Shown here piece by piece: positions 30,297 through 30,935 of a stretch of DNA of 64,000 nucleotides. Under the pieces are notes generated by a model, which was not told the origin of the DNA, did no database searches, and was given only the letters and a program-made list of their open reading frames with translations. Numbering within the stretch: position 1 is the first letter of the stretch; the number at the start of each line of letters is the position of its first letter. Source of the stretch: Shigella phage sb1; the sequence record PQ666539. One strand, 5' to 3'. The position numbers were made by a program, and so were the translations under genes.

Positions 30297-30484
30297 TATT
30301 CTTCTACGTGTTGTTTACGACCTTTCCTATCAATAAAGGTATATTCAACGAATGTTCCAATATAGTCTTTATCTACATCATGTGGACTATTAATTGGGCA
30401 TTTAGTACGGCAAATGCGTTCCCATTGACGAATAATTTCCACTTTGTTTTTAGGATCAAACGGATGCGGGTAATGTACTTTCAT
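30272..30484 (-). CDS. Hypothetical protein (70 aa)
   Basis: ORF track. Confidence 0.4.
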   Translation of the reverse strand: MKVHYPHPFDPKNKVEIIRQWERICRTKCPINSPHDVDKDYIGTFVEYTFIDRKGRKQHVEEYCLKVTWL

Positions 30485-30935
30485 AATCCACCACTATTAA
30501 ATCAATATCAGGAGTAAACATGTCGATTAATTTAGAAACCTTATCCCAATCACCACCAGCAATACCGCAACCTATGCGTGGAATGTAAATTACTGGTTTA
30601 AACAAAAGGGTTTCTGCATGTAGATTTAATTCTATCATACAGTTTACTAAAGCACCGTAATCAAGATTAGGGCCCGGTTCGTATTGGGTGTATAAATTAT
30701 AGCACATTTCAAATCCCTTAGGCCTATGTTTAAAAACAATAGACATATCACCTAATTTATCACGAGAGCCGTATTCGGTAGTAGTCTTATCAATTTCTAA
30801 AATTTTAGGATAGGCCCTTGCTAATTGACCCGCCACGCATGAACCCATAGTATGAAAACAGTTGCACCCATGTGCAATAATATTACCTTGGAGAAACAGG
30901 GCGACGATATCGCCCTTAATATATTTTACAATCAT
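30456..30935 (-). CDS. Macro-domain-like protein (tentative)
   Basis: ORF track; glycine-rich segments GCNCFHTMGSCVAG and IGCGIAGG resemble macro-domain ADP-ribose-binding loops. Confidence 0.4.
   Translation of the reverse strand: MIVKYIKGDIVALFLQGNIIAHGCNCFHTMGSCVAGQLARAYPKILEIDKTTTEYGSRDKLGDMSIVFKHRPKGFEMCYNLYTQYEPGPNLDYGALVNCMIELNLHAETLLFKPVIYIPRIGCGIAGGDWDKVSKLIDMFTPDIDLIVVDYESTLPASV

Follow-up and report, generated by a model that had tools for sequence, protein, structure and literature searches.

Which ADP-ribose-containing substrate, if any, is acted on by the protein encoded between vs and tk.3 in Shigella phage sb1? The window analyzed here, a stretch of 64,000 nucleotides from this phage (PQ666539), carries at that position an open reading frame (ORF) for a protein of 159 amino acids, which the first-pass annotation tentatively read as a macrodomain protein that could reverse ADP-ribosylation by host defence toxins or process immune signals derived from ADP-ribose. 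The source phage is a Tequatrovirus, and the segment 29900..31900 shares 96.5% identity with Escherichia phage Ec_MI-02 and ~96% with many other phages. The ORF is the already named and already known gene tk.4; several GenBank records that are 96–97% identical label it 'macro domain(-containing) protein', and the results described here reveal no new kind of system.

The tk.4 locus and the class of its product

The ORF has exactly the ends given in the first-pass annotation and lies, as stated there, in the tk-to-regB interval; it is read from the minus strand, which had been left unstated. It belongs to a minus-strand run comprising regB, vs.1, vs, tk.4, tk.3, several small ORFs and tk (Table 1). 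In T4 (NC_000866), tk.4 likewise separates vs from tk.3, and it bears the annotation 'phosphatase; contains A1pp phosphatase motif'. The two products are 57% identical over the full length (155 aa; E 9e-69), and the downstream neighbor tk.3 encodes a protein that is 92% identical to T4 Tk.3. The ORF is an ortholog of T4 tk.4 and belongs to the Tk.4/AdfM orthologous group. It is a real gene and not a chance ORF, because it has many homologues, shares with T4 the 4-nt overlap (ATGA) between its start and the vs stop, and shows a dN/dS of ~0.26 relative to the T4 gene. A tblastn search with the protein finds matches in 2,729 phage records, with at least 80% of the query covered in 2,402 of these, and 506 protein clusters match it at E ≤ 1e-3.

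The ATGA overlap would couple the translation of tk.4 to that of vs. A promoter-like site upstream of regB is only suggestive of an early promoter, and a scan of the region returned no more promoter-like sites than expected from shuffled sequence. The timing of tk.4 expression can thus be judged by analogy with T4 only.

Table 1. Features of the tk.4 region in the window
Feature	Position	Strand	Remarks
tk	28946..29527	(-)	
tk.3 (DUF7202)	30272..30484	(-)	downstream neighbor; start overlaps tk.4 end by 29 nt
tk.4 / adfM-like gene	30456..30935	(-)	ATG start; 159 aa; single-domain macrodomain, TARG1-like class; Gln at catalytic position
Loop 2, I121-V133, IGCGIAGGDWDKV	30537..30575	(-)	diphosphate-binding loop
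Short non-basic 'mobile loop', residues 85-93, YEPGPNLDY	30657..30683	(-)	follows Gln84
Gln84 codon	30684..30686	(-)	position of TARG1 K84, DarG K80, SCO6735 Gln85
Loop 1, H22-G36, HGCNCFHTMGSCVAG	30828..30872	(-)	distal-ribose and catalytic-water region
tk.4 translation start region	30932..30951	(-)	GAGG 12 nt upstream of ATG; ATGA overlap with vs stop; read from sequence
vs (valyl-tRNA synthetase modifier)	30932..31279	(-)	upstream neighbor; interrupted by TGA at codon 10
vs.1	31272..31817	(-)	
regB	31825..32286	(-)	
Promoter-like site, TTTACT-17-TG-TATAAT	32314..32342	(-)	upstream of regB; possible early promoter for regB-vs.1-vs-tk.4

Sequence, profile and fold searches with the tk.4 product all return macrodomains, in agreement with the tentative first-pass call. 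The Pfam Macro profile (PF01661) matches at 32.6 bits (E 8.6e-8; profile positions 2–117 of 118), above its curated gathering cut-off of 22 bits, and the call therefore stands on the very profile search on which it had been staked. PHROG 335, labeled 'phosphatase', is matched at 1e-67. In a phmmer search of PDB sequences, the matches at E ≤ 0.1 are macrodomains only, namely BT1257, yeast Poa1p, SCO6735, Mycobacterium tuberculosis DarG (5m3i) and TARG1. A profile built from 104 homologues ranks BT1257 (4e-19), TARG1 (3e-16), SCO6735 (1e-15), Poa1p (1e-14), M. tuberculosis DarG (2e-12) and Thermus aquaticus DarG (1e-10) above coronavirus Mac1, which is matched at only 5e-3. The AlphaFold2 model, computed from 103 sequences with the T4 row left out, is confident (pLDDT 93.8, pTM 0.88) and has the three-layer alpha/beta macro fold; its top-ranked Foldseek matches are TARG1, Poa1p, DarG and BT1257. 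By sequence and by fold, the protein is nearer the TARG1/ALC1-like class than the MacroD, viral Mac1 or PARG classes. The profile, AlphaFold2 and Foldseek results therefore place it in the TARG1/ALC1-like class of macrodomains, which includes TARG1, DarG, SCO6735, BT1257 and Poa1p.

Homologues of tk.4 are found in databases under the names 'macro domain(-containing) protein', 'phosphatase', 'hypothetical protein' and 'O-acetyl-ADP-ribose deacetylase'. The identity that the last of these names implies (MacroD / YmdB / O-acetyl-ADP-ribose deacetylase) was considered and rejected: the corresponding NCBIfam model, NF001661, gives 14.8 bits where its cut-off is 291, and structures of the MacroD type have clearly lower scores than those of the TARG1 class.

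The active site and its relatives

Among the 104 homologues, H22, G23, N25, C26, A35, D49, N80, Y82, Q84, P119, G122, G124 and W130 are invariant, and A126, G127 and G128 nearly so. Most of the invariant residues fall within the two glycine-rich segments that had first suggested a macrodomain; both are present in the translation (HGCNCFHTMGSCVAG at residues 22–36 and IGCGIAGGDWDKV at residues 121–133), and they correspond to the pair of loops with which the macro fold binds its ligand. Residues were mapped onto characterized enzymes with a gapless hhalign alignment for human TARG1, whose query sequence is identical to PDB 2lgr, and with an HMMER alignment for SCO6735, for which subtracting a 20-residue tag from the chain index reproduces the published V25, Q85, K89 and G126. 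Single phmmer or MAFFT alignments are unreliable around Gln84, where those of BT1257, PhiKZ and TARG1 are shifted. The hhalign alignment is gapless from N80 to Y93 and sets Q84 on the catalytic K84 of TARG1 and A126 on its D125; the HMMER alignment sets H22-G23-C24-N25 on H24-V25-C26-N27 of SCO6735, Q84 on Q85 and G122 on G126.

Human TARG1 (also OARD1; PDB 4J5S) is the best Foldseek match (E 1e-10, TM 0.73–0.83), and the loop that follows its catalytic residue equals that of the phage protein in length. The two proteins differ in that the K84/D125 dyad of TARG1 is replaced by Q84/A126 and in that the TARG1 loop is basic (KKRASHK), whereas residues 85–93 of the tk.4 product include no Lys or Arg. 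Loop 2 (PRIGCGIAGGDW) resembles its counterparts in SCO6735 (PRIGCGLAGGTW) and BT1257 (PRIGCGLAGGKW) and not that of TARG1 (PRIGCGLDRLQW). Within the family, the post-Gln loop takes the 10-residue form Q[YF]xPGPNx[DE]Y in 78 of the 104 members, and the other 26 have loops of 12–14 residues.

The closest parallel in active-site residues is SCO6735 of Streptomyces coelicolor, a bacterial, DNA-damage-inducible protein that strips DarT-made ADP-ribose from thymidine in DNA both in vitro and in cells. Neither the Lys nor the Asp is present in this enzyme, in which Gln85 occupies the place of the Lys, and both Q85A and Q85E are inactive. In the mechanism proposed for it, the backbone oxygen of V25 holds a water molecule and Gln85 positions the distal ribose. 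The tk.4 product shares with SCO6735 the Gln in place of the catalytic Lys (Q84 and Q85), the HxCN motif, the PRIGCG[LI]AGGxW loop and the lack of a TARG1-type Asp, and it is likewise a free-standing single domain that is not linked to a DarT gene. The present allele retains every residue known to matter in this Gln-type thymidine-ADPr hydrolase. The mobile loop, on the other hand, is 5 residues longer in SCO6735 than in TARG1 or DarG owing to a GMKTG insertion and carries K89 and K94, which have been proposed to clamp DNA; this clamp is absent from the phage protein. The aligned residues thus describe a predicted Gln-type, SCO6735-like active site on a scaffold whose loop has the short length found in TARG1 and DarG.

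DarG, which serves as antitoxin in the DarTG2 toxin–antitoxin and defence system, is the sole match of the tk.4 product in a search of defence models (PADLOC), and only its macro part is matched (E 1e-5 for the present protein and 1e-9 for T4 Tk.4). The match covers ~145 of the 329–338 positions of the DarG models (positions 3–144 of 329 in PADLOC). DarG (PDB 5M31, 5M3E, 5M3I and 7OMU) has a catalytic Lys, K80 in the T. aquaticus protein, where the tk.4 product has Gln84, and the C-terminal DarT-binding domain of DarG is missing from the 159-residue phage protein. As would be anticipated when this second domain is lacking, the NCBIfam DarG equivalog (NF048014) gives only 23.7 bits, its cut-off being 250. 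No DarT gene lies beside tk.4, whose neighbors are vs and tk.3, and none is annotated in the complete genome of Ec_MI-02. On these grounds the protein was rejected as a member of the DarG family in the strict sense: the catalytic Lys, the C-terminal domain and an adjacent DarT gene are all absent, and the equivalog score is far under the cut-off.

A further phage macrodomain directed against the same defence system is gp104 of the chimallivirus PhiKZ, which was independently named AdfM (Cell Rep 2026, PMC13309987). In vitro, gp104 takes DarT2-made ADP-ribose off an oligonucleotide containing TNTC; it also rescues cells from DarT2 toxicity, and its N23A mutant is less active (PMC13309987). Like the tk.4 product, gp104 is a single-domain phage macrodomain with a conserved Asn (N23, which aligns with N25), and both proteins are acidic (pI 5.05 for PhiKZ AdfM, which is active on DNA, and 5.5 for the tk.4 product). 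It is nevertheless remote from Tk.4 (BLASTP E 0.01; hhalign probability 96%), has a DarG-like Lys at the catalytic position (FPTK) and is imported into the phage nucleus. Since gp104 is both remote and of the Lys type, the shared name AdfM covers two separate lineages, one of the Tk.4 type and one represented by PhiKZ gp104.

Candidate substrates of the tk.4 product

No ADP-ribose-processing domain is commoner in large phages than the macrodomain, and what these domains act on is only now emerging. Both of the activities envisaged in the first-pass annotation have found a precedent in the family: the reversal of ADP-ribosylation by a host toxin in T4 Tk.4/AdfM, which counters DarTG2, and the processing of an ADP-ribose-derived immunity product in Adpp of Vibrio phage Gary, which acts on the ADPR-1''-phosphate made by aRES. 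A single sequence family thus has two published functions, anti-DarTG2 and ADPR-1''-phosphate phosphatase. Tn-seq of a T4 transposon library grown on a DarTG2-expressing host gave tk.4 as its only significant hit; a clean knockout made T4 sensitive to DarTG2, and the gene received the new name adfM (bioRxiv 10.1101/2025.11.20.689424). The authors of this November 2025 preprint proposed that the protein enzymatically removes ADP-ribose from DNA; their evidence is genetic, and the T4 allele is the one that was tested (10.1101/2025.11.20.689424). A literature search found no report of in-vitro DNA de-ADP-ribosylation by any Tk.4-type protein. The reversal of thymidine ADP-ribosylation (T-ADPr) has been described as the unifying activity of TARG1-type macrodomains.

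As far as its sequence can tell, the tk.4 product of sb1 is a macrodomain of the TARG1/DarG/SCO6735 class that stands alone and is most likely capable of catalysis. It probably fills the role of T4 AdfM, that of an 'orphan antitoxin' that hydrolyzes DarT2-made thymidine-ADP-ribose on phage DNA in a Gln-dependent and lysine-independent manner. The 57%-identical allele would then act on the same substrate as the T4 protein, and its catalytic details would follow those of its better-known relatives. In this scheme, DarT2 of a host DarTG2 system would place ADP-ribose on thymidines of single-stranded phage DNA, and the macrodomain would bind the DNA-attached ADP-ribose in the cleft between its two glycine-rich loops. 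Hydrolysis of the ribose–thymine bond would release free ADP-ribose and restore the DNA, so that replication could proceed. Catalysis would probably be of the SCO6735 type and not of the DarG/TARG1 type, with Gln84 orienting the distal ribose and a backbone-held water acting in place of the catalytic lysine.

Several features speak against a role of the tk.4 product on DNA. The loop after Gln84 is short and free of Lys and Arg, whereas the longer loop of SCO6735 uses basic residues to hold DNA; the protein is acidic, although so is the DNA-active PhiKZ AdfM; the tested T4 protein is just 57% identical and has an atypical loop 2; and the function of the family is not uniform, as the Gary Adpp, 38% identical to the tk.4 product, is an ADPR-1''-phosphate phosphatase. 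This last activity, from which the older 'phosphatase / A1pp' label of Tk.4 derives, could also be the main one of the tk.4 product, which would convert ADPR-1''-phosphate made by RES-domain NADases such as aRES to ADP-ribose. The PHROG 335 label and the T4 annotation agree with such a function, and yeast Poa1p (PDB 6LFQ) is among the top matches in both sequence and fold. Of the Poa1p residues mutated in PDB entries, H23 is conserved as H22 and S30 is conservatively replaced by T29, whereas F152 corresponds to Ala126 and differs. ADPR-1''-phosphate is the product of the aRES defence NADase, and some phages insert the macrodomain gene Adpp into the NARP1 NAD-reconstitution operon, as described in a January 2026 preprint (10.64898/2026.01.28.702374). 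The Gary macro protein, which has the HxCNC, YxQ and GxGxAGGDW motifs in common with the tk.4 product, turns ADPR-1P into ADPR in vitro, and the phage needs it to overcome aRES (10.64898/2026.01.28.702374). Its gene is flanked by genes annotated as ribose-phosphate pyrophosphokinase (Adps) and nicotinamide phosphoribosyltransferase (Namat), and an Acinetobacter phage homologue with the same three motifs is encoded directly downstream of Adps and Namat genes. The Gary phosphatase, however, functions only within the NARP1 operon, whereas tk.4 lies between vs and tk.3, and tblastn finds no homologue of Adps or Namat in the 64-kb window or in the whole of the 165-kb Ec_MI-02 genome, whose single macro gene is this tk.4 allele (96.9% identity). 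The absence of Adps and Namat from the window and from the full genome of the nearest relative weakens the published NARP1-dependent Adpp role, which was rejected for the tk.4 product. The phenotype of the T4 ortholog is also clear and specific for DarTG2, and the tk.4 product is far nearer T4 Tk.4 (57%) than Adpp (38%), with the short Tk.4-type loop and not the basic loop of Gary Adpp and its Acinetobacter phage homologue, which is 7 residues longer after the Gln. A mainly phosphatase function is hence improbable, but it is the chief rival to the anti-DarTG2 reading; phosphatase and DNA de-ADP-ribosylation activities are not mutually exclusive, and by analogy the tk.4 product may have a stand-alone or secondary phosphatase activity.

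It is similarly unlikely that the tk.4 product is a de-ADP-ribosylase with a broad or different target, be it RNA with uracil- or phosphate-linked ADPr, Glu/Asp-linked ADPr on proteins, O-acetyl-ADP-ribose, the products of other defence ADP-ribosyltransferases (ARTs) or the marks left by Alt, ModA and ModB of the phage itself. Enzymes of the TARG1 class are promiscuous, in that TARG1, DarG and SCO6735 also take U-ADPr off RNA and SCO6735 acts on proteins too; Ec_MI-02, the closest complete genome, encodes ARTs of the Alt, ModA and ModB types; some sources call homologues 'O-acetyl-ADP-ribose deacetylase'; and a comparative-genomics survey has argued that phage macrodomains target mostly soluble ADPr derivatives. 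However, the system that ADP-ribosylates mRNA, CmdTAC, still defends strongly against wild-type T4, which has tk.4, and it was under DarTG2 that tk.4 stood out as the only significant T4 gene. The deacetylase model falls far below its cut-off, as noted above. Alt and ModA modify arginine, and TARG1-class macrodomains are not known to cleave the arginine-ADPr linkage. The replacement of the canonical Lys and Asp of TARG1 by Q84 and A126 could further be taken to mean that the tk.4 product does not catalyze at all and serves as a reader or sponge of ADP-ribose, or that it blocks DarT2 by binding and not by hydrolysis; catalytically dead mutants of SCO6735, DarG and TARG1 do still inhibit DarT in vitro. 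Yet Gln at the catalytic position is essential in SCO6735 and not inactivating, the Adpp homologue is an active enzyme and the domain with which DarG binds DarT is absent. None of the 104 homologues departs from Gln84, N25 or the loop glycines, as would be predicted for an enzyme. A binding-only role is unlikely because these Gln, Asn and Gly residues are invariant and relatives are enzymatically active, and of the readings weighed here it is given very little credence. A doubtful, wider reading joins the two published functions: Tk.4-type Gln macrodomains would be bifunctional, removing DarT2-made ADP-ribose from phage DNA and dephosphorylating, or processing in some other way, soluble products of RES-family NADases of the ADPR-1''-phosphate type, and, in a related form, diverged alleles would differ in substrate or in the DarT2 variants that they neutralize. 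If bifunctional, one enzyme of 159 residues would blunt two unrelated NAD-based defences.

A diverged allele in a conserved backbone

The anti-DarTG2 role favored here for the tk.4 product has a counterpart in the history of the gene. At the DNA level, the flanking genes tk, vs, vs.1 and regB are 95–100% identical to those of T4, whereas identity inside tk.4 is ~83% over the first ~35 codons and falls to 40–68% at 30460–30800. Relative to T4, dS in tk.4 is saturated (~1.5 overall and 2.5 for codons 36–155), compared with 0.10–0.14 in tk, vs.1 and regB. Since dS is saturated in tk.4 and low in the flanks, the gene is an old allele that recombination has brought into a backbone ~97% identical to that of T4, where purifying selection continues to act on it. 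Rapid positive selection in situ was rejected as the reason why the gene differs from that of T4, given saturation at synonymous sites (dS 1.5–2.5) and a dN/dS of ~0.2–0.26; allele replacement was preferred. A high dS in tk.4, a low dS in its flanks and a dN/dS of 0.26 are the pattern expected of a counter-defence cassette, and the tk.4 locus acts as an exchangeable cassette in a conserved backbone.

The allele of the present phage is found at >90% identity in ~300 phage records (tblastn), whereas other Tequatrovirus records have the T4/RB14-type allele, which is ~57% identical to it. The two allele types are distinguished by an AGG loop in the present phage and a GKG loop in T4, and they recombine through near-identical Tequatrovirus backbones. 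If the alleles differ in specificity, swapping them would re-tune the counter-defence range of a phage. The comparison can be used in the annotation of tk.4, now spread over 'phosphatase', 'macro domain protein' and 'hypothetical protein', and in the choice of variants for biochemical comparison. The proteins of sb1 and T4 agree in genus, locus, length class (159 and 155 aa) and invariant residues, Gln84 and the short PGPN loop among them. They differ in loop 2, which in T4 Tk.4 is the atypical GAGIGKGNW and in the present allele the family consensus GCGIAGGDW. The present protein also has four extra residues at its C-terminus, and the overlap between tk.4 and tk.3 is 29 nt long in sb1, compared with 4 nt in T4.

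Junctions of tk.4 with tk.3 and vs

The start codon of tk.3 (ATG at 30484) lies within tk.4, so that the last 29 nt of tk.4 (30456..30484) are shared with tk.3, whereas the corresponding overlap in T4 is 4 nt. The longer overlap arises because the tk.4 allele of the window has four added C-terminal codons and a shifted junction. Comparison of DNA identity with T4 places the right-hand recombination boundary of this allele at approximately the same interval, 30456..30484.

At the other end, the ATG of tk.4 overlaps the stop codon of vs, the gene for the valyl-tRNA synthetase modifier, which is interrupted in the window. 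Codon 10 of vs is GGA (Gly) in T4, Ec_MI-02 and teqdroes and TGA in the window, a one-base change at about 31252, and the longest ORF remaining in the interrupted gene is 43 aa. This stop could mark a genuine null allele or reflect an error in sequencing. Given the overlap of the two genes, premature termination in vs might reduce coupled translation of tk.4. In minimal medium, the most depleted gene is vs (HIDEN-SEQ preprint, 10.1101/2025.11.20.689424). Two terminator-like hairpins fall in the 5' part of tk.4, and four terminator-like sites were found in the region versus 1.2 expected.

Features around tk.4 in the window, and two phage loci (L004, L005) carrying macro-protein homologs
Feature	Coordinates	Strand	Description
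Small ORF	29896..30072	minus	58 aa
Small ORF	30069..30296	minus	75 aa, Cys-rich
Terminator-like hairpin	30877..30862	minus	from hairpin scan
Terminator-like hairpin	30898..30916	plus	7-bp stem, 5 GC pairs, T-rich tail
vs	30932..31279	minus	in-frame TGA at codon 10
vs.1	31272..31817	minus	'hypothetical protein' in T4 record
Vibrio phage Gary locus	L004 4132..7162		macro-protein homolog inside PRPP synthetase/Nampt gene pair
Acinetobacter phage vB_AbaM_14/CRR8 locus	L005 1904..5474		macro homolog directly downstream of PRPP synthetase/Nampt gene pair

Other differences from T4, and vs.1

Between tk.2 and tk.3, the window carries approximately 370 bp that are not in T4 (about 29895..30260), with two small ORFs that are also present in relatives, such as teqdroes and Ec_MI-02. 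The Cys-rich product scores 100.8 bits against the Pfam family 'Phage zinc binding domain' (PF23895), and a Pfam search with the 58-aa product returned no match. A second, milder patch of divergence covers tk.1/tk.2 (29600..29900), where identity to T4 is 77-88% in 60-nt windows compared with 95-100% elsewhere in the surrounding backbone.

The product of vs.1 has a signal-peptide-like N-terminus and scores 23.3 bits against the Pfam SLT transglycosylase domain, barely over the threshold of 21.3. It is annotated as an SLT-domain protein in one relative and mislabeled as a RegB-domain protein in another.

Macro-protein homologs at NARP1 loci and the name AdfM

In the Gary and vB_AbaM_14/CRR8 loci, the gene pair labeled PRPP synthetase and Nampt is Adps and Namat of NARP1, and RNA ligase genes lie close by. 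The GenBank annotation of these genes is older than the NARP1/Adpp nomenclature.

The name AdfM has been assigned independently to two macrodomains encoded by phages, T4 Tk.4 and PhiKZ gp104. T4 Tk.4 is of the Gln type, whereas PhiKZ gp104 is of the Lys type and DarG-like, and the kinship between them is only remote. This double use of one name could misdirect annotation transfer.
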